Positions 46,141-53,179 of a stretch of 64,000 bases of DNA are shown in pieces (the stretch's first letter is position 1; each line of letters opens with the position of its first letter). The stretch is from an uncultured archaeon (lineage in GTDB: Archaea > Thermoproteota > Nitrososphaeria_A > Caldarchaeales > Wolframiiraptoraceae). The position numbers were made by a program, and so were the translations under genes. The stretch covers positions 17,388-81,387 of the forward strand of contig CALKCF010000001.1 in assembly GCA_938083505.1 (NCBI GenBank), given 5' to 3'. Below the pieces are notes generated by a model. It had not been told where the DNA came from. It saw only the letters and a list, made by a program, of their open reading frames with translations, and made no database searches.

Positions 46141-47487
46141 TCATTCTCCTAATTCTGCACTAAACATACGCTTTGGTAACTTCAAAGGAGACCTTTTTAT
46201 AGATTTTATCATCCTTTTTAATAAATTATATTGTTGGAGGAGGTGTTTAACATCCTTCTCGGTCACACCCGATCCTCTAGCTATACGTCTTATCCTCGAG
46301 GAGTCTATAATGTGAGGGTTCTTCCTTTCCTCAGGCGTCATAGAAAGTAAAATCGCCGACCATTTTTCGATCTGCGTCTCAACCTTTTCGAATTCCTCGT
46401 CAGGTATATTGGGAAGTCCAGGTAAAGGTAACTTCGATATTATTTTCTTCAAAGGTCCTAATTTTTTCATTTCTTTAAACTGTTTTATAAAATCTTCTAA
46501 GGTAAACTTCCCGCTTGTAAAACTCTTGAGCCTCTCCTTGTTAAACTCCAACTCGGCAATCTTTACTCTTTCTAGTAAACCCTTTATGTCGCCTATACCT
46601 AAGAGCCTACCGATGAAGCCTTGTGGGTTAAACACTTCTATATCTTCGAGTTTCTCACCAGTTCCGATAAATTTTATCTGTGCTCCAGTGGCCGCCACGG
46701 CCGATAGTGCACCACCACCTTTCGCAGAGGTATCCATCTTAGTGATTATTATAGAACCTATTGGTGTTGCTTTGTGAAATGCCTCAGCATGTGCACCAGC
46801 CTGTTGACCTATCGTTCCATCCAACACCAACATTATTTCGTTAGGTTTAATGTTTTCCTCTAACATCTTCATCTCTTGCATTAGCGATTGTTGATCTTTG
46901 TGTCTACCAGCCGTATCTATAATTATAACGTTGCATTTTTGTTTGGATAGACATTCAACACCCTTTGTGGCTATAGTAATAGCATCACGCTCTTCAGGTA
47001 GGCCGTAGACAGGTATGTCTTTCCCATCAAGGAGTTGTCTTAACTGTTCATATGCTCCAGTTCTGAATGTGTCAGCGCAGACTACACCTACCGAGTAACC
47101 CAATTTCTTGAGATAATTTGCCAGCTTTGCAACTGTAGTTGTTTTTCCGTGTCCTTGTATGCCAACAACCATGATTACGTATTGTTTAGATTTATCTATG
47201 GTAATCTTATAGGGCTTCTCACCTATCAGCGATATAAGTTCCTCGTACACTATTTTTATAATTTGATCTTTCTTGGAAATACCTGGTGGAACTTTCTCTG
47301 TCAATGTCCTATTCCTTATCTTCTCCGAGAGTTTCATCACGAGCTCAACATTTACGTCCGAGACCAGGAGAGCTCTTTGTATGCCTCTTATGAGTTCCTC
47401 GACGACATTTTTATCTACACCTGTTGCAGACATGAATTTGCTTATGGCCTGTTTTATGAGTTCACCGAGCGAAGTTATCGGGTTCAA
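46141..47487 (-). CDS. srp54: signal recognition particle protein SRP54
   Basis: 448 aa. The N and G domains (GIQGHGKTTT, DTAGR) and the Met-rich M domain are present. Confidence 0.9.
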   Translation of the reverse strand: MNPITSLGELIKQAISKFMSATGVDKNVVEELIRGIQRALLVSDVNVELVMKLSEKIRNRTLTEKVPPGISKKDQIIKIVYEELISLIGEKPYKITIDKSKQYVIMVVGIQGHGKTTTVAKLANYLKKLGYSVGVVCADTFRTGAYEQLRQLLDGKDIPVYGLPEERDAITIATKGVECLSKQKCNVIIIDTAGRHKDQQSLMQEMKMLEENIKPNEIMLVLDGTIGQQAGAHAEAFHKATPIGSIIITKMDTSAKGGGALSAVAATGAQIKFIGTGEKLEDIEVFNPQGFIGRLLGIGDIKGLLERVKIAELEFNKERLKSFTSGKFTLEDFIKQFKEMKKLGPLKKIISKLPLPGLPNIPDEEFEKVETQIEKWSAILLSMTPEERKNPHIIDSSRIRRIARGSGVTEKDVKHLLQQYNLLKRMIKSIKRSPLKLPKRMFSAELGE

Positions 47488-47550
47488 GGCTTAAGTAATA
47501 CTCTGAAATCTAATAATAAAGGTTGCTCAAGAAGTATTTATCCTCAACGA

Positions 47551-48552
47551 GTGCATAAGGGGGTGGTGCCGCATTTGAACAGCAAAAGAACAGCCCTAAT
47601 AGAGGGTAGTTATGTCGAGGTAGGAGTCGGTGTGATATTTGCAGTAAAGGGTGTATCACATCCACCTAAAGGAGTTATAGCGGTTCCAAAGTATATAAAA
47701 ACAGAAGGTTCGGTCGTCAAATTGAACAGTTTCAATTCCTCGGTGTATTTTCTCAGGAGACATTTTCGTGAGTTTTTAATACATGACGAGTACTTAGGCC
47801 AAGAGATACCGTTTGTACCTTTAGAGGAAGTTAAGCGAGTTTACGACCCGATCGATGGAAAGAATTATTTGAGAAAAGATGCGATATCGAGCATTGCCCT
47901 TAAAATGGTGGAGCTAATTGTTGAGAACTCCGGAATAGAGAGCGACTTCGTTGGCATATCAGGTTCTATCCTTTTAGGTCTTTATAACGAATTCTCTGAC
48001 ATTGACATTGTAGTTTATGGTATAAAAAATTGTTTGAAAGTTTATGACGCCCTAAAACTTATGCGTGAAAATAATATAACTGAACATCTTTCTGAAGGTT
48101 TCTTAAAAAAAATCTTGGAATCTAGATCTGACACGCTCATGGAACCTATCGTGTGGATGATGCATGAAAAAAGAAAACTTACAAACGGAGTATTCATGGG
48201 AAGACCATATACACTAAAACTCACTCCTCTTCCAGAAGAATTTTGGGACAAATACGGAGAGCGCCGTTTTAAGGAAATCGGTAGGGCCATCATACGCTTC
48301 CAAGTAAGTGATGCTTCAAAGAGCATCTTCACACCTTGTCGTTATGAGATCAAGGTGATTAGTATAATCAATGGACCGGAGATTTCGTCGAAGGTATCTT
48401 CGATCGTTTCATTCAGAAGTAGATTTGCCGAACAGCTTCGCGAAGGTGAAGTTGGTATAGCTTCAGGAAGGCTTGAATTATCAAACGATGAGAGGTTAAG
48501 ATTATTTATCGGAAATGATCCACATGACCTTTTAATGGTCGATTCGTCTTGA
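47551..48552 (+). CDS. pol-beta-superfamily nucleotidyltransferase-domain protein, tandem paralog 1
   Basis: The minimal NTase motif is GISGSILLGLYNEFSDIDIVVYG (G-S x11 D-I-D). The start is chosen at the in-frame GTG 47551, because the longer ORF from 47149 runs antisense through srp54. Confidence 0.6.
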   Translation: MHKGVVPHLNSKRTALIEGSYVEVGVGVIFAVKGVSHPPKGVIAVPKYIKTEGSVVKLNSFNSSVYFLRRHFREFLIHDEYLGQEIPFVPLEEVKRVYDPIDGKNYLRKDAISSIALKMVELIVENSGIESDFVGISGSILLGLYNEFSDIDIVVYGIKNCLKVYDALKLMRENNITEHLSEGFLKKILESRSDTLMEPIVWMMHEKRKLTNGVFMGRPYTLKLTPLPEEFWDKYGERRFKEIGRAIIRFQVSDASKSIFTPCRYEIKVISIINGPEISSKVSSIVSFRSRFAEQLREGEVGIASGRLELSNDERLRLFIGNDPHDLLMVDSS

Positions 48553-49592
48553 GAAGGTTTAGAGACAAAGATTATGTTGAGACATATGAAGAGCGGTTCT
48601 TCTGTGTAGTAGGTGAAAACCATCCTCATGATAGACTTATTGCATATTTGAAGTACTTGCCGGGCGATGGTGCATGGTCACGGCGAGGAAAAAGTTTCAC
48701 GAGAGTCATACGTAGTTATTCGATGCAAGAGTTAGTTGATACGATAAATTTTCTTAAGAAAAATAAACCTGAGTATGTTTTTTACGACGAAACGATAGCT
48801 ACTGAGATGTCTTGTGTTCCACTTAACAAAGTGTTAAAATACTATAGATGCGACAAGAGATTACGTGAGATATTAAAGGATGATAGGTTAGATGAACTTG
48901 AGAGCAAAGCTAAGGAATTGGTGGAATCAATAGTAAAAGTTTCTGGTATAGACGTTAAAAACATGGGAATCACCGGCTCAATACTTTTAAAAATACATCA
49001 TCTGAATTCGGACATAGATCTTGTTGTATATGGAAAAAACAACTTTTGGAAAGTGTTACACAACTTATACTTGATTAATGATATTAAACCCCTCGACGAG
49101 TTAAGATTAAACGAGTGGATTAAGAGGATAAGTGCAAAATATCCTATTTCTATAGATATAATATCGAAGCTGGTAAAGTTGGTAAGGAACAAATACATTT
49201 ACAAAGGCACACCTTTCTCGATTCATGGTGTCAGATTAGATGAAGAAGTGACAAGAAGTTATGGTGAAGTTATTTACCGTAAATTAGGTCTTGCTAAAAT
49301 AAGGGCAGTAATTTCTGACGCATCAGAATCTTGTTTCACACCGGCTATTTATAGACTATCTAACGTGGAGACAGAACAAGAATACGCTAAAGATGTAGAA
49401 ATACTGGCATGTTTTGATGGAACATTCACAGCGATGTTTGATGAGGGTACATATATAGAGGCTTTCGGAAAGGTCGAGCGCGTTATGGAGCTAAAAAGTG
49501 GGCGCGTATTTAAATGGTTGCTAATCGGTACGTTTGAAGGTATGGACAAAGAGTATATTATTCCGATTAAAGAAGCACCTTTACCTCATTAA
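48549..49592 (+). CDS. pol-beta-superfamily nucleotidyltransferase-domain protein, tandem paralog 2
   Basis: The NTase motif is GITGSILLKIHHLNSDIDLVVYG. It shares blocks with paralog 1 (YVE...HP...IA..KY, ISDAS.S.FTP..Y). Its ATG overlaps the paralog-1 stop (ATGA). Confidence 0.65.
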   Translation: MRRFRDKDYVETYEERFFCVVGENHPHDRLIAYLKYLPGDGAWSRRGKSFTRVIRSYSMQELVDTINFLKKNKPEYVFYDETIATEMSCVPLNKVLKYYRCDKRLREILKDDRLDELESKAKELVESIVKVSGIDVKNMGITGSILLKIHHLNSDIDLVVYGKNNFWKVLHNLYLINDIKPLDELRLNEWIKRISAKYPISIDIISKLVKLVRNKYIYKGTPFSIHGVRLDEEVTRSYGEVIYRKLGLAKIRAVISDASESCFTPAIYRLSNVETEQEYAKDVEILACFDGTFTAMFDEGTYIEAFGKVERVMELKSGRVFKWLLIGTFEGMDKEYIIPIKEAPLPH

Positions 49593-51216
49593 GTACCCTA
49601 TTCTGTATCCACAGTGGTGTCCAAGGCATTAGTAGCAAGGCATACTTACCCTCAGCGGCACTCTTCAGAACATCTTTGCTTCCAACAGATAGGTATCCAG
49701 ATAAAAGATAGCGCGCATACTCTACCGATTTATTTACATCAAGATAGTGCCCTATGTAAAGCAAAACCTCTGTCAAGTCCCATACCTTATCACCATTAAA
49801 TGAGGCCTGTTCTAAGTCTACTATGTAAACTTTGTCTCCTGATATTATGAAGTTTTCAGGTTTACAATCACCCAACGTGATGTCATGTTGATGAATTTTT
49901 GCTAATTCTCTCCCAACCATAAACGCAGCTCTATTTAACACGTTTTGTTCACTTCCCGACATCCACATTTGCATAAGATCCTGCCCTTCAATGAATTTCT
50001 GGAACAACATCTTCTTCTTCCAATTTATATGATATATATCGGCTGTATTGAAACCAAGTTCCGCAAGCTTATTAACAAAGTAAATCTCATTAGAAAGCCT
50101 GACATCAGCTATGACCGAGAAGTTCTTCATACCAATAGTCCAGACCCTAGCCGCTACCCACTTCAGGTCCGTCCAGTTAATATATTTCTTAACAAAAACC
50201 CTCTCTTCTGAATCTTTTGTTCGGATTATGATGACATAAGTCGAGTTAAGCATCCGACCTATCTTCTTTATAAGTATCTGACTTCTGTTCACATTATAAA
50301 CTCGTTCAACGAAGTCCATGATGTCGAATCGTTCTTTTAACGGTTGTTTCCCTATGGCAGTTTTTATGAACACGTATTCCTCCGGATCAGGAAGGTCGTT
50401 TTCAGTTTTGTAAAATAGTGACCTCCTGATTTTTGAGTATAATTCCTCTGCTATGATGCGTGGATTAAAGCGTCCTGCATAACCATGCACGAGATACATT
50501 TTAAACATCTTTTCGAAATCATAAACTTTTTTAGCAAACTTATTCGCTTGGTTTAAAGTTGAAAGTATGAACTTGTTAGAAAGGCGATAATACTCACCAT
50601 CCTTGAGTAGAAAACCCTCAGATTCTAAATCAGCTAAGGCTAAGTAAAATCCTTTCATACAAATTTCTGTATTAACCTTCTTATAAGGTGCAGAAAATAT
50701 CTTCGAATAACTATAACGCGCCGGCGGATACATCAGAGCCCTTCTCCTTAACTTCTCGAAGAGAAAGTATTCAGGCTGCATCAAAAGCTCGTTTGCAGCC
50801 ATTCTGTGCTCCAGTATTAGATTCTCACATAATTCCAACACAACATTTTTCTTGTAAGTCTTGTCAAATTCTTTCAAAAGTGTGACACCTATAATAGGAT
50901 AAAACGGTGTTAGAAGTCTTCCTGCCACAAATTCTCCAAAAGAGCCGTTTCTCACATCATCCCTCATGATATTTTCATCAACCGCTAAAATGGCAACTGT
51001 AGGTTCAAAATTTCTTAGATAGTAGTATTTTATACCCTCCTTGAATTTTTTCACGATACATAACACATCCAAATCGCTACTCTTCAAAGAGTAGCCAGAA
51101 AGTTGAGAGCCGTAAATGCAAAGGCACGATATGTCATCTTCCTTAAAGATACTTTTCGAGGCTTCAAGTGCTATTTGAGCTAACATATTAAGCCTATCCT
51201 CTGGAATTGCATACAT
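49567..51216 (-). CDS. nucleotidyltransferase (ANT/KNTase-like) N-domain fused to protein-kinase-like (APH/Kdo-kinase/RIO-like) C-domain
   Basis: 549 aa. The N-terminal NTase motif is IYGSQLSGYSLKSSDLDVLCIV. The C-terminal 200 aa carry VFVKKY (candidate ATP-binding Lys), a catalytic loop HQHDITLGDCKPENFII and a metal-binding IVDLEQA (DFG-equivalent). Confidence 0.65.
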   Translation of the reverse strand: MYAIPEDRLNMLAQIALEASKSIFKEDDISCLCIYGSQLSGYSLKSSDLDVLCIVKKFKEGIKYYYLRNFEPTVAILAVDENIMRDDVRNGSFGEFVAGRLLTPFYPIIGVTLLKEFDKTYKKNVVLELCENLILEHRMAANELLMQPEYFLFEKLRRRALMYPPARYSYSKIFSAPYKKVNTEICMKGFYLALADLESEGFLLKDGEYYRLSNKFILSTLNQANKFAKKVYDFEKMFKMYLVHGYAGRFNPRIIAEELYSKIRRSLFYKTENDLPDPEEYVFIKTAIGKQPLKERFDIMDFVERVYNVNRSQILIKKIGRMLNSTYVIIIRTKDSEERVFVKKYINWTDLKWVAARVWTIGMKNFSVIADVRLSNEIYFVNKLAELGFNTADIYHINWKKKMLFQKFIEGQDLMQMWMSGSEQNVLNRAAFMVGRELAKIHQHDITLGDCKPENFIISGDKVYIVDLEQASFNGDKVWDLTEVLLYIGHYLDVNKSVEYARYLLSGYLSVGSKDVLKSAAEGKYALLLMPWTPLWIQNRVLNEVKVLL

Positions 51217-51281
51217 TTCTCTTATAGAGTAATCAGGCTCAAGGTTTAAACTTTTATTCTCGCTTAGTATAACAAGGGCTT

Positions 51282-52625
51282 ATGCTAACAATCTCGGAGG
51301 CTAAAGAACTTCCTAGAAAGCTGGTCAAGAAAATTTTAAAGCTAGGTGCATCTGATGCAACAGTAAGGTTAAGCGTATCAAATTCAACGATGATAAGGTT
51401 TTCAAACAATAATGTCACAATTTCGAACTCTTTTAAGATTGCCGTATTGGAAATATACATAGCATTTAAAGAGAGGAGAGTTACAGGTACAATAACTGAC
51501 CTCTCACAAGCTTCAATTGAACAAACGATTGAACGATTGATGTCTACTGCTAAGACCGTTCAACCTTCTGACGTTTATGCACCGCTTCCAAAAGGTCCAT
51601 TTAAGTATGATAGATATCTCCTGAAAGTTGGCAACATTAGTATGGAGCCGGACATACTTGTCGATTACGTGAATGCGGCCGTAAATTCTGCAATCTCCAT
51701 GGGTGCTAAAAGAGTCGCTGGTTTTCTTAGGTTTATGAAGAGTGAAACTGTGCTTTGCACTAGCGGCAACGTAGAAGCATCATCCAAAAAGAATGCTGCT
51801 GCACTTTATGTGAGAGCATTCGCGGCGGACGATGCTACAGGGCAATTCGCCACAGCTACAGCTGACAGTTCGGAATTTAGGCCAGAAAAAGTTGGCTCCA
51901 TTGCCGGTGAGATAGCAAAGATTGCCTTAAATCCAGTTGAAGGTGAGCCAGGTAGATATGACGCGATTCTGGGACCAATGGCGTTTGCCCATATCATTGA
52001 TGAATTCGGCTCAGCTACATCTGCTTTTAACGTTGACATCGGTGCGTCCTTCTTAGTCGATATGTTAGGGAAACAGGTTGCTTCACAAAAATTCACGTTA
52101 ATTGATGATCCTACATTGTATAACACTTACGGTGCGGAGCCTTTTGATGACGAAGGACTACCGACTAGGAGGAACATAATTGTGGAGAACGGTATCTTGA
52201 AAACTTATCTTCATAATAGTACAACGGCGAAAAGGCACGGTACAACGAGTACCGCAAATGCTGGGATAATAGTTCCTACACCGTTTAACCTAATAATTGA
52301 GGCTGGCGATAGAAGTTTCGAGAAGTTGCTTTCTGAGGTTGATAGAGGCATATATGTAACAAACGATTGGTACCTAAGATATTCAAACTACAGAGAGGGT
52401 GATTTCTCTACTGTACCGAGGGATGGGCTCTTCATGATAAAGAACGGTAGTATAGAAAAACCCCTCAAGGGTCTCAGACTCGTCGGCAACATGATAAAGC
52501 TCTTAAGCTCTATAATAGCGTTAAGTATGGAGAGGCACTGGATAGAGTGGTGGGAAGTAGAAACACCCGTCTACGCTCCTTGGGCGTTAATCGCCGACGT
52601 TGAATTTACAAAAAGTATGCTTTGA
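51282..52625 (+). CDS. TldD/PmbA-family metallopeptidase
   Basis: 447 aa with the family's N-terminal and C-terminal domains. It is a single copy with no TldD/TldE partner in the window. Confidence 0.75.
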   Translation: MLTISEAKELPRKLVKKILKLGASDATVRLSVSNSTMIRFSNNNVTISNSFKIAVLEIYIAFKERRVTGTITDLSQASIEQTIERLMSTAKTVQPSDVYAPLPKGPFKYDRYLLKVGNISMEPDILVDYVNAAVNSAISMGAKRVAGFLRFMKSETVLCTSGNVEASSKKNAAALYVRAFAADDATGQFATATADSSEFRPEKVGSIAGEIAKIALNPVEGEPGRYDAILGPMAFAHIIDEFGSATSAFNVDIGASFLVDMLGKQVASQKFTLIDDPTLYNTYGAEPFDDEGLPTRRNIIVENGILKTYLHNSTTAKRHGTTSTANAGIIVPTPFNLIIEAGDRSFEKLLSEVDRGIYVTNDWYLRYSNYREGDFSTVPRDGLFMIKNGSIEKPLKGLRLVGNMIKLLSSIIALSMERHWIEWWEVETPVYAPWALIADVEFTKSML

Positions 52626-52633
52626 ATATTCTG

Positions 52634-53179
52634 CTATAATTTATACCCTATCTTCCTTAGAAATTCCTTCCTCTTCTTTATGTCCTCTTCTCCTTCTATT
52701 CCCTTTGATTTGTAACCGTCGATTACGCCCATTATACCTCTGCCCTGTTCTGACTCAACCACAATGATCTGGAGCGGATTTGCTGTAGCTGCTAGGATTG
52801 TGCAAACTTCAGGTACTTCTTTTAATCTGTTCAACACATTTATGGGATACATATCCTTTATGAACAACAAAAACGTATGACCACATCCAATCTTGAGCAA
52901 TGTTTCGGCGGCGAGCTTCCTTAGTTCTTCATCCGTGCCTTCATGTCTAATGAGGCACGGACCGCTGGCTTCAGCGAACGCTAAGCCAAACTTCGCTCCT
53001 GGTACAGAGTTCATTATAGCTTCATAAATGTCCTCTACACTCTTTATGAAGTGTGTTATGCCGAATATAACGTTACAACCTTCAGGCACTTTTATGTCTA
53101 TTATTTCCAACTTCAACCTATATACACCTAAGACACTCAAAATTTTATGGTGTGATAAAAACATTACATTTTCAACCAC
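52634..53179 (-). CDS. DUF355/COG1839-like ('adenosine-specific kinase' family) protein
   Basis: 181 aa. The pattern PEG.NVIFG..HFIK.VED...A......KFG.AF.EASG...R..G.DEEL matches that family as I remember it. Moderate confidence. Confidence 0.45.
   Translation of the reverse strand: MVENVMFLSHHKILSVLGVYRLKLEIIDIKVPEGCNVIFGITHFIKSVEDIYEAIMNSVPGAKFGLAFAEASGPCLIRHEGTDEELRKLAAETLLKIGCGHTFLLFIKDMYPINVLNRLKEVPEVCTILAATANPLQIIVVESEQGRGIMGVIDGYKSKGIEGEEDIKKRKEFLRKIGYKL

Follow-up and report, generated by a model that had tools for sequence, protein, structure and literature searches.

A conserved nucleotidyltransferase and kinase gene block in Caldarchaeales and its possible link to the tail of methanopterin-type one-carbon carriers

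The subject of this study is a gene block in a 64,000-nt window from the chromosome of an uncultured Caldarchaeales archaeon. At positions 47551-52625, the window encodes two paralogous nucleotidyltransferases (NTases) of a family termed here PAR (par1 and par2), a protein that joins a Tam41-like NTase domain to a Bud32/APH-like kinase domain (hereafter, the fusion), and a TldE-like protein. Gene context and predicted folds suggest that the block enzymes assemble or modify the phosphodiester-linked tail of a methanopterin-type one-carbon (C1) carrier, and we put the probability of this reading at roughly 40%. Methanopterin is the C1 carrier of methanogens and of most other archaea. To our knowledge, the enzymes for its ribosyl-phosphate-hydroxyglutarate tail have never been assigned to genes. 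If the proposed role is correct, this old gap in archaeal cofactor biosynthesis becomes directly testable. We found that the NTase family PAR is widespread, that its domain architecture is new and that no relative has a solved structure, and we identified in the fusion the first Tam41-like domain joined to a kinase. As far as the searched libraries and literature show, the PAR family with its architecture, the joining of a Tam41-like domain to a kinase and the C1 links of both have not been described; NTase-fold transferases and kinases in cofactor assembly are a kind of system already known.

Gene neighbourhoods of PAR and of the fusion

A PAR-profile scan of one genome per GTDB species yielded 80 loci, whose open reading frames (ORFs) were searched with profiles for PAR, for both halves of the fusion and for TldD-like proteins. 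All the neighbouring ORFs were clustered, and the clusters were named by Pfam. Genes of the C1 pathway or of cofactor tails lie within 8 kb in 42 of the 67 loci without fusion or TldE-like gene, which are outside Caldarchaeales. Genes of a core set (CitG-like PF01874, Ftr, FwdA/B/C-like, Mch and Mtd) are found in 37 of the 67 (55%), compared with about 10% of loci expected; this expectation is our own rough estimate with no computed control, based on about ten genes, a genome of at least 1,500 genes and 16 neighbours. The commonest direct neighbour of PAR is a CitG-like gene (15 loci), followed by Ftr (14), an Asn_synthase-like gene (7), a membrane protein family (7) and a RimK-type ATP-grasp ligase (6). 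Within 8 kb, CitG-like genes accompany PAR in 18 loci; they are absent from the window and from all the block-carrying loci. Genes for Flavoprotein+Fer4 (DmrX-like), F420_ligase-like, Mer-like and helix-turn-helix (HTH)-PfkB proteins also recur near PAR.

This pattern extends over Ignisphaera, Desulfurococcales, Bathyarchaeia, Nitrososphaeria, Methanomethylicia, Culexarchaeum, Aenigmatarchaeota and Asgard lineages. In two loci (L064 and L065), the genes are ordered Ftr-Mtd-FwdB-FwdA-FwdC-Mch-PAR-RimK, and in four Ignisphaera loci (L025, L029, L035 and L053) CitG is followed by PAR. The order FwdB-Mtd-Mer-PfkB-membrane-PAR-PAR-Ftr is shared by an Asgard locus and a locus from a second lineage (L049 and L022). 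Moreover, CitG-like homologs and PAR occur in largely the same named taxa. In a Methanobacterium metagenome-assembled genome (MAG), no PAR gene neighbours the CitG-like gene.

The fusion also occurs beside C1 genes. In three related loci it lies directly upstream of, and co-directional with, gcvT, which is followed by glyA, a membrane protein gene and an F420_ligase-like gene. In three other loci a Succ_CoA_lig-like gene precedes the fusion and a gene for a metallo-beta-lactamase-fold protein follows it, one of these loci also having Fae. On a Nitrososphaeria contig, a 492-aa protein with DHDPS and Fae Pfam matches is encoded 8 kb from a fusion homolog (L004 1-159). Two families are common to the fusion-gcvT-glyA loci and to PAR neighbourhoods in other phyla: that of the membrane protein (E 8e-32 and 8e-30) and that of the F420_ligase-like protein. 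Thus, PAR and the fusion are linked in three ways: they are adjacent in Caldarchaeales, they share neighbours elsewhere, and both are associated with enzymes that use the C1 carrier. The membrane family itself (about 230-250 aa; L091 11221-11913, L093 10276-10977 and many PAR loci, e.g. L074 5455-6213) gives a faint signal of an energy-coupling factor (ECF) transporter S-component; near PAR pairs, genes for an ABC ATPase and an HTH-PfkB kinase accompany it. Its members may transport a cofactor precursor.

The arrangement PAR(-PAR)-fusion-TldE was found in 16 other loci, all of Caldarchaeales type: 13 from the PAR scan (L005-L007, L009-L011, L013, L015, L016, L018, L027, L037 and L039) and three reached through fusion homologs (L001, L085 and L087). 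The closest relatives of all the genes are in MAGs of Ca. Terraquivivens (79% identity for par2), of the family Wolframiiraptoraceae in the order Caldarchaeales, formerly Aigarchaeota. The flanks vary widely among the 16 loci, which indicates that the block is kept more faithfully than its surroundings within one order-level lineage. Outside Caldarchaeales-type genomes, PAR loci and fusion loci occur without each other and without the TldE-like gene. Hence, the co-conservation that the earlier note on this DNA proposed to look for exists, but only within Caldarchaeales-type genomes. In Geocrenenecus-type genomes, a 73-aa CDGSH zinc-finger (iron-sulfur) gene lies between par2 and the fusion (L011, L013, L014; L085 7642-7863), at the place where par2 and the fusion overlap in the window.

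PAR homologs are mostly archaeal, and the exceptions in protein and genome scans are Streptomyces plasmids and one doubtful MAG contig. By tblastn, full-length PAR homologs were found on 21 Streptomyces plasmids (PAR profile E 3.8e-40). In the two plasmids examined (L089 9238-13440, NZ_CP109318.1; L090 3249-9638, NZ_CP108475.1), the PAR gene is translationally coupled to a preceding gene for an APH-family kinase, whose end it overlaps, and its companions are a histidine phosphatase, a 374-382 aa Zn-ribbon hypothetical protein, a GntR regulator and one or two S-adenosylmethionine (SAM) methyltransferases. Since these plasmids pair a kinase with PAR independently of the archaeal block, the kinase-PAR partnership arose at least twice. 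The composition of the Streptomyces module fits small-molecule tailoring and RNA-end repair alike, and does not decide between the two. The doubtful contig (L072, DFBK01000051.1) has been assigned to a bacterial MAG, Anaerolineales bacterium UBA3082. It has two PAR genes and CitG-like fragments, arranged as in archaea, and is probably a misbinned archaeal contig.

These neighbourhoods bear on the possibility that the block has no shared function, that is, that par1-par2 form one unit while the fusion and the TldE-like gene are unrelated to it and their adjacency has merely persisted in one order. The genes form three transcription units in convergent and divergent orientation, they are never adjacent outside Caldarchaeales-type genomes, and every block locus comes from a single order-level lineage, as mere persistence would predict. 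However, the block has persisted while its flanks came to differ widely, it has survived the insertion of the CDGSH gene, two neighbour families are common to PAR and the fusion elsewhere, and the kinase-PAR pairing has appeared independently in Streptomyces. We consider an accidental neighbourhood unlikely.

The PAR, fusion and TldE-like proteins

The tandem paralogy of par1 and par2, recognised in the earlier note, was borne out by BLASTP (29% identity over 309 aa, E 3e-31). The same note regarded the proteins as uncharacterised, in agreement with our finding that Pfam and NCBIfam have no family of its own for either paralog and that neither has a whole-protein PDB match; profiles from the two libraries assigned neither of them to a known housekeeping family. 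Apart from the generic NTase domain, PAR is covered by no Pfam or NCBIfam family, and the JGI label of the homologs is only 'predicted nucleotidyltransferase'. The NTP_transf_2 scores of par1 and par2 are weak (21.0 and 24.1 bits against a Pfam cut-off of 21). At the level of the fold, the paralogs belong to the Pol-beta superfamily, having both its hG[GS] x9-13 Dh[DE]h motif and its NTase fold. Identity with a known housekeeping NTase (CCA-adding enzyme, TiaS, MNT/HEPN or KNTase) was rejected, as neither a profile nor a whole-protein structural match was obtained. At least 532 GTDB species have a match to the PAR profile, and a search of 1.84 billion representatives gave 1,203 PAR clusters at E<=1e-10, with a length of 330-365 aa in nearly every case. 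The lineages include Thermoprotei, Bathyarchaeia, Nitrososphaeria, Methanomethylicia, Nezhaarchaeota, several Asgard groups, Theionarchaea and Aenigmatarchaeota.

When 154 PAR sequences were clustered, par1 (subfamily 2) and par2 (subfamily 3) fell into two ancient subfamilies that co-occur across phyla. A third subfamily is restricted to Bathyarchaeia. GGS and DxD are present at 100% in all the subfamilies, which differ at positions 224 and 226 (S/H, F/R-K or E/E). Subfamily-2 genes usually share an operon with subfamily-3 genes, which follow them at spacings of -4 to 66 nt in 27 of 29 co-directional pairs, and overlaps of 4 nt were seen in three phylum-level groups. To judge from these sequences, the PAR pair is an ancient duplication, translationally coupled, with both copies catalytically intact by motif. 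The production of two intact enzymes together suggests a heteromer or consecutive steps. In Bathyarchaeia, where the restricted subfamily has E/E at positions 224/226, three or four PAR paralogs are clustered in several loci (L031, L032, L043, L054, L055, L057-L059, L070, L077, L080 and L083). Most of these clusters have an Asn_synthase-like gene, usually together with a CAAX-protease-like gene, between the PAR genes, and a convergent Ftr.

The AlphaFold2 (AF2) model of par2 has a predicted local distance difference test (pLDDT) score of 94.5 and consists of an N-terminal beta-rich domain, a Pol-beta NTase domain and a C-terminal oligonucleotide/oligosaccharide-binding (OB) fold. In a Foldseek search, nothing in the PDB matched at E<=0.001. 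Taken separately, the C-terminal domain is structurally closest to OB folds that bind single-stranded DNA or RNA and to the anticodon-binding domains of aminoacyl-tRNA synthetases, and the NTase core is similar to terminal uridylyl/adenylyl transferases. The par2 OB domain has an acidic isoelectric point of 5.05, and its invariant columns hold no conserved basic residues.

The fusion belongs to a family with at least 266 full-length homologs in Nitrososphaeria. Its NTase motif, GSQLSGYSLKSSDLD, was read in the translation, as were those of the two paralogs. Thus, the three NTase motifs listed in the earlier note are all present in the window proteins, although that of the fusion is intact in only 51 of 120 homologs. 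The window's Terraquivivens clade and a second clade retain it. In Pfam, the Polbeta score of the fusion is below the cut-off (23.4 against 26.9) and its APH score exactly at it. With the archaeal Bud32 model TIGR03724 it reaches 52.7 bits, where the cut-off is 125, and with the NF0114xx models it stays far below their cut-offs. The AF2 model (pLDDT 89.4) shows a Tam41-like NTase/winged-helix fold followed by an ELK kinase fold. On this structural match, the ANT/KNTase-like identity previously assigned to the N-terminal domain was replaced by Tam41-like, although no Tam41/Mmp37 Pfam match was found at E<=0.01 and the fusion-family profile had no PDB sequence match. The kinase half, in which a catalytic loop followed by DLE had been noted before, indeed reads HQHDITLGDCKPENF...VDLEQ; its residues K343, E377, D450 and D467-L-E-Q are invariant in the alignment, and it carries family-specific Trp-rich motifs. 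Its best structural match is Bud32 of the KEOPS complex, and the tRNA kinase ArkI is also listed. Tam41 converts a phosphomonoester and cytidine triphosphate (CTP) into a cytidine diphosphate (CDP)-alcohol. On a plain reading, a kinase joined to a Tam41-like domain would phosphorylate an alcohol and then activate it as a nucleoside diphosphate (NDP)-alcohol, but the NTase motif is so often lost that this suggestion is weakened.

These folds could also belong to an RNA-directed module, in which OB-fold NTases would extend an RNA end by nucleotides or modify it, with the Bud32/ArkI-like kinase phosphorylating the RNA, in tRNA or other modification or in repair. The nucleic-acid-binding relatives of the OB domain, the transferase-like NTase core and the matches of the kinase to Bud32 of the tRNA-modifying KEOPS and to ArkI all point that way; so do the Pus10 and SRP54 genes flanking the block in the window and the kinase, phosphatase, NTase-OB and methyltransferase genes of Streptomyces, which recall Pnkp/Hen1 RNA repair. 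Nonetheless, 55% of the PAR loci outside Caldarchaeales are in methanopterin/methanofuran C1 clusters beside small-molecule tailoring enzymes, the fusion is placed before gcvT and glyA, the OB domain is acidic and without conserved basic residues in its invariant columns, and the Pus10/SRP54 flank is specific to Terraquivivens-like genomes. We consider an RNA-directed function quite unlikely.

The fourth protein matches all three domains of the TldD/PmbA family (PF19289 1e-64, PF01523 1.3e-4 and PF19290 1.2e-3), with scores above or close to the cut-offs. Its best curated match is PmbA, and all its scores are far below the NCBIfam equivalog cut-offs. Its assignment in the earlier note as a TldD/PmbA peptidase holds for the family but not for the activity. 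The motif HExxxH (or H[ED]xxxH), searched by regular expression and by alignment, is absent from all 14 orthologs, and its identity as an active TldD protease was rejected for this reason; lacking this metal-binding motif, the protein is PmbA/TldE-like, and protease activity of this protein by itself is not to be expected from its sequence. The gene is strictly paired with the fusion, and any part that its product plays in the proposed pathway would be conjectural. A protein modification or regulation system has to be weighed here, in which the NTases would nucleotidylate and the kinase phosphorylate a target, with the TldE-like protein as partner or processing factor, and which would include maturation of peptides akin to ribosomally synthesized and post-translationally modified peptides (RiPPs). 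TldD/E proteases process peptides, and the kinase weakly matches the kinase domains of lanthipeptide synthetases. Such a system is improbable given that no precursor-peptide ORF is present, the genes being separated by 65 nt or overlapping, that the TldE-like protein lacks the metal-binding motif, and that the context in other lineages is cofactor and C1 metabolism.

A possible route to the carrier tail

If the block tailors a methanopterin-type carrier, the kinase domain would phosphorylate a hydroxyl group; in other archaea, the CitG-like enzyme adjoining PAR would alternatively install a 5-triphosphoribosyl group. NTase-fold enzymes would then form the phosphodiester, with loss of pyrophosphate or of a nucleoside monophosphate (NMP). 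In Caldarchaeales, where no CitG-like gene was found, the kinase/Tam41-like fusion could provide an alternative activation route. We infer the substrates and the order of these steps; what we observe are the domain folds, the conservation of motifs and the gene neighbourhoods. In methanopterin, the bond in question is the ester between alpha-ribosyl 5-phosphate and 2-hydroxyglutarate. The product of CitG is an alpha-linked 5-triphosphoribosyl adduct, the alpha-phosphate of which is joined to a hydroxyl by CitX/MdcG with release of pyrophosphate. LicD/fukutin-type enzymes, which have an NTase fold, and Tam41-type enzymes work with CDP-alcohols. In a more detailed version of the route, which we regard as doubtful, the PAR pair and the CitG-like enzyme would supply the late steps of methanopterin synthesis, and the fusion of Caldarchaeales would offer a CDP-alcohol-type route to the same tail or to a lineage-specific one. 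Here, the CitG-like enzyme would attach an alpha-5-triphosphoribosyl group to the ribityl chain, and PAR would join the alpha-phosphate to 2-hydroxyglutarate, releasing pyrophosphate.

Some of these elements have been dealt with in other systems. The bacterial carrier dephosphotetrahydromethanopterin (dH4MPT) is without the phosphate and hydroxyglutarate (PMC8141765), and methylotrophs retain a CitG-like gene in the mch cluster (PMC3615186; PMC11533326). The gene orf5 encodes the glutamate ligase MyfB and is not CitG-like, and MptN adds glutamate to the hydroxyglutarate of methanopterin (PMC8141765). The RimK-type ligases beside PAR would fit glutamate addition of the MptN type. Our literature search returned nothing on a role of CitG-like proteins or NTases in methanopterin biosynthesis.

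Several observations weigh against a role in the carrier tail. First, we found no C1-pathway or CitG-like gene in the 64-kb window or within 8 kb of any of the 13 block loci from the PAR scan; none of the CitG-like homologs among the 120 matches listed is named Caldarchaeales, and papers on Caldarchaeales make no mention of methanopterin. Second, the fusion is convergent with par2 and divergent from the TldE-like gene, and therefore the block is not one operon. Third, the NTase motif of the fusion is lost in 69 of the 120 homologs, those of most other block-carrying Caldarchaeales and of a third clade among them. In addition, the OB fold and the Bud32/ArkI-like kinase, as modelled, would also suit an RNA substrate. 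Published biochemistry proposed phosphoribosyl pyrophosphate (PRPP) and ATP for the steps considered here. We know of no use of methanopterin by Streptomyces, a PAR carrier.

What the analysis provides is a testable candidate set, formed by the PAR pair, the CitG-like protein, the RimK-type and F420_ligase-like ligases and the fusion, with gene context in at least seven archaeal lineages.

Features of the locus and comparison with known systems

The three transcription units of this chromosome segment are par1-par2 (+), the fusion (-) and the TldE-like gene (+); their coordinates are given in Table 1. All four ORFs are placed as in the earlier note, which was also correct on the overlap of par2 and the fusion, on the spacer upstream of the fusion and on the position of GTTTAAAC. 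The overlap of the paralogs, by contrast, had been taken for ATGA. The start codon of par1 is GTG, with an in-frame TTG at 47575 as alternative start. The longest ORF that holds par1 reaches 400 nt further upstream (window 47149-47550) and overlaps the 5' part of srp54 on the opposite strand; homologs and the A/T-rich box in front of par1 show that this extension is noncoding. The element GTTTAAAC is probably a shared TATA-box-like element of the two divergent genes. It is kept only among Terraquivivens species, other genera having different A/T-rich boxes, and a special meaning as a regulatory palindrome was rejected on account of this one-genus conservation and its TATA-box look.

Table 1. 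Coordinates of the features of the locus in the 64,000-nt window
Feature	Positions	Strand	Basis
Spacer between divergent srp54 and par1, with A/T-rich box TAATAATAAAGG (~47511-47522)	47488..47550	.	sequence; putative promoter role
par1: PAR subfamily-2 NTase (N-terminal beta domain, Pol-beta NTase, OB fold)	47551..48552	+	ORF; par2 paralog; PAR profile E 8e-81
par1 NTase active-site motif GISGSILLGLYNEFSDID	47953..48006	+	translation; GGS and DxD 100% kept in subfamily 2
par2: PAR subfamily-3 NTase, TTG start overlapping par1 stop (TTGA)	48549..49592	+	
par2 NTase active-site motif GITGSILLKIHHLNSDID	48966..49019	+	translation; G140, G143, S144, D155 and D157 invariant
Fusion: Tam41-like NTase/winged-helix domain and Bud32/APH-like kinase domain	49567..51216	-	3' end overlaps par2 by 26 nt
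Fusion, Bud32/APH-like kinase domain (~aa 300-549)	49567..50319	-	catalytic loop and DLEQ at 49807-49893
Fusion, Tam41-like NTase and winged-helix domain (~aa 1-270)	50407..51216	-	GS..DLD motif at 51067-51111
Divergent 65-nt spacer with palindrome GTTTAAAC (51244-51251)	51217..51281	.	sequence; ~31 and ~34 nt from the two start codons
PmbA/TldE-like protein, TldD/PmbA family, without HExxxH	51282..52625	+	PF19289 1e-64, PF01523, PF19290

Among the flanking genes, Pus10, PF04008 (formerly DUF355) and DUF763 were confirmed by profiles; srp54 was recognised only from reading its translation. The PF04008 gene ('adenosine specific kinase', window 52634-53179, -) directly follows the TldE-like gene. 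The same succession is seen in 7 other loci, one of them a Desulfurococcales PAR locus without fusion (L045). The remainder of the window looks like an ordinary archaeal chromosome with two tRNAs, and its base composition reveals no island or anomaly.

These features, together with dedicated searches, bear on the proposal of the earlier note that the locus belongs to a CBASS/SMODS-like second-messenger system of anti-virus defence. Several NTase domains are clustered with a kinase and a peptidase-family gene, as could be expected for such a system. However, PADLOC gave 0 families for par1 and the TldE-like protein, only PDC-S09 for par2 (E 0.0094 over 30 residues) and only generic kinase matches for the fusion (PD-T4-6 E 1e-6 and weaker), all of which we regard as noise. 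Phage searches returned no match, the fusion had no plasmid match, and no archaeal plasmid was matched. Moreover, there is no effector gene, mobile-element context or compositional anomaly at the locus, the paralogs end in an OB fold and not in the helical domain of the CBASS-type NTases (CD-NTases), and the genes are conserved vertically across orders and phyla in housekeeping or C1-pathway contexts. A defence function was rejected on the PADLOC, phage and plasmid searches and strikes us as extremely improbable; this removes a false lead, and the locus should not count as a candidate archaeal defence system. The fallback of the earlier note, a conserved archaeal modification pathway, is nearer the evidence, although the gene context points to C1 cofactor metabolism and not to RNA or protein modification.

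Compared with CBASS/SMODS, the PAR proteins share the Pol-beta-type core with GS..DxD and differ in their OB fold, in the lack of a PADLOC match and of an effector, and in their housekeeping or C1 context. The fourth protein has all the family domains of the TldD/TldE (PmbA) metalloprotease; unlike that system, it lacks HExxxH in all orthologs, has no adjacent second family member and stays far below the equivalog cut-offs. As to the small kinases of the Bud32 (KEOPS), RIO, ArkI and APH types, the kinase half of the fusion has a Bud32-like fold with catalytic residues. It departs from Bud32 in its low TIGR03724 score, its Trp-rich motifs and its Tam41-like partner, and no Kae1 gene is fused or adjacent to the fusion in the window or in related loci. 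With Tam41/Mmp37, a soluble CDP-diacylglycerol synthase, the fusion shares the modelled N-terminal NTase and winged-helix fold; it differs in having no Pfam Tam41 match, in being joined to a kinase and in the loss of the catalytic motif in most members. Archaeal lipid synthesis uses a different, membrane-bound CDP-archaeol synthase.

The closest parallels lie in cofactor and tail assembly. The CitG/CitX (MdcB/MdcG) systems of citrate lyase and malonate decarboxylase resemble the PAR loci in that the commonest direct neighbour of PAR is of the CitG family and that PAR is a Pol-beta-fold NTase with an intact GS..DxD, CitX/MdcG being NTase-fold transferases. PAR differs from CitX and MdcG in that it has no detectable similarity to their profiles among the 47 members checked (Pfam E<=1), has two additional parts, an N-terminal beta domain and an OB fold, comes as two paralogs and would act on a small molecule rather than on an acyl carrier protein; furthermore, the window has no CitG-like gene. 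CofC, CofD, LicC and LicD bear no sequence relationship to the block proteins. The likeness to the CofB/CofC/CofD pathway of the F420 phospholactyl moiety and to the LicA/LicC/LicD pathway of phosphocholine is one of logic only: a kinase fold of small-molecule type, an NTase of a kind that acts on phosphomonoesters and further NTase-fold proteins, which could transfer the phospho-alcohol, occur together, and the context of the block genes includes F420_ligase-like and RimK-type tail ligases.

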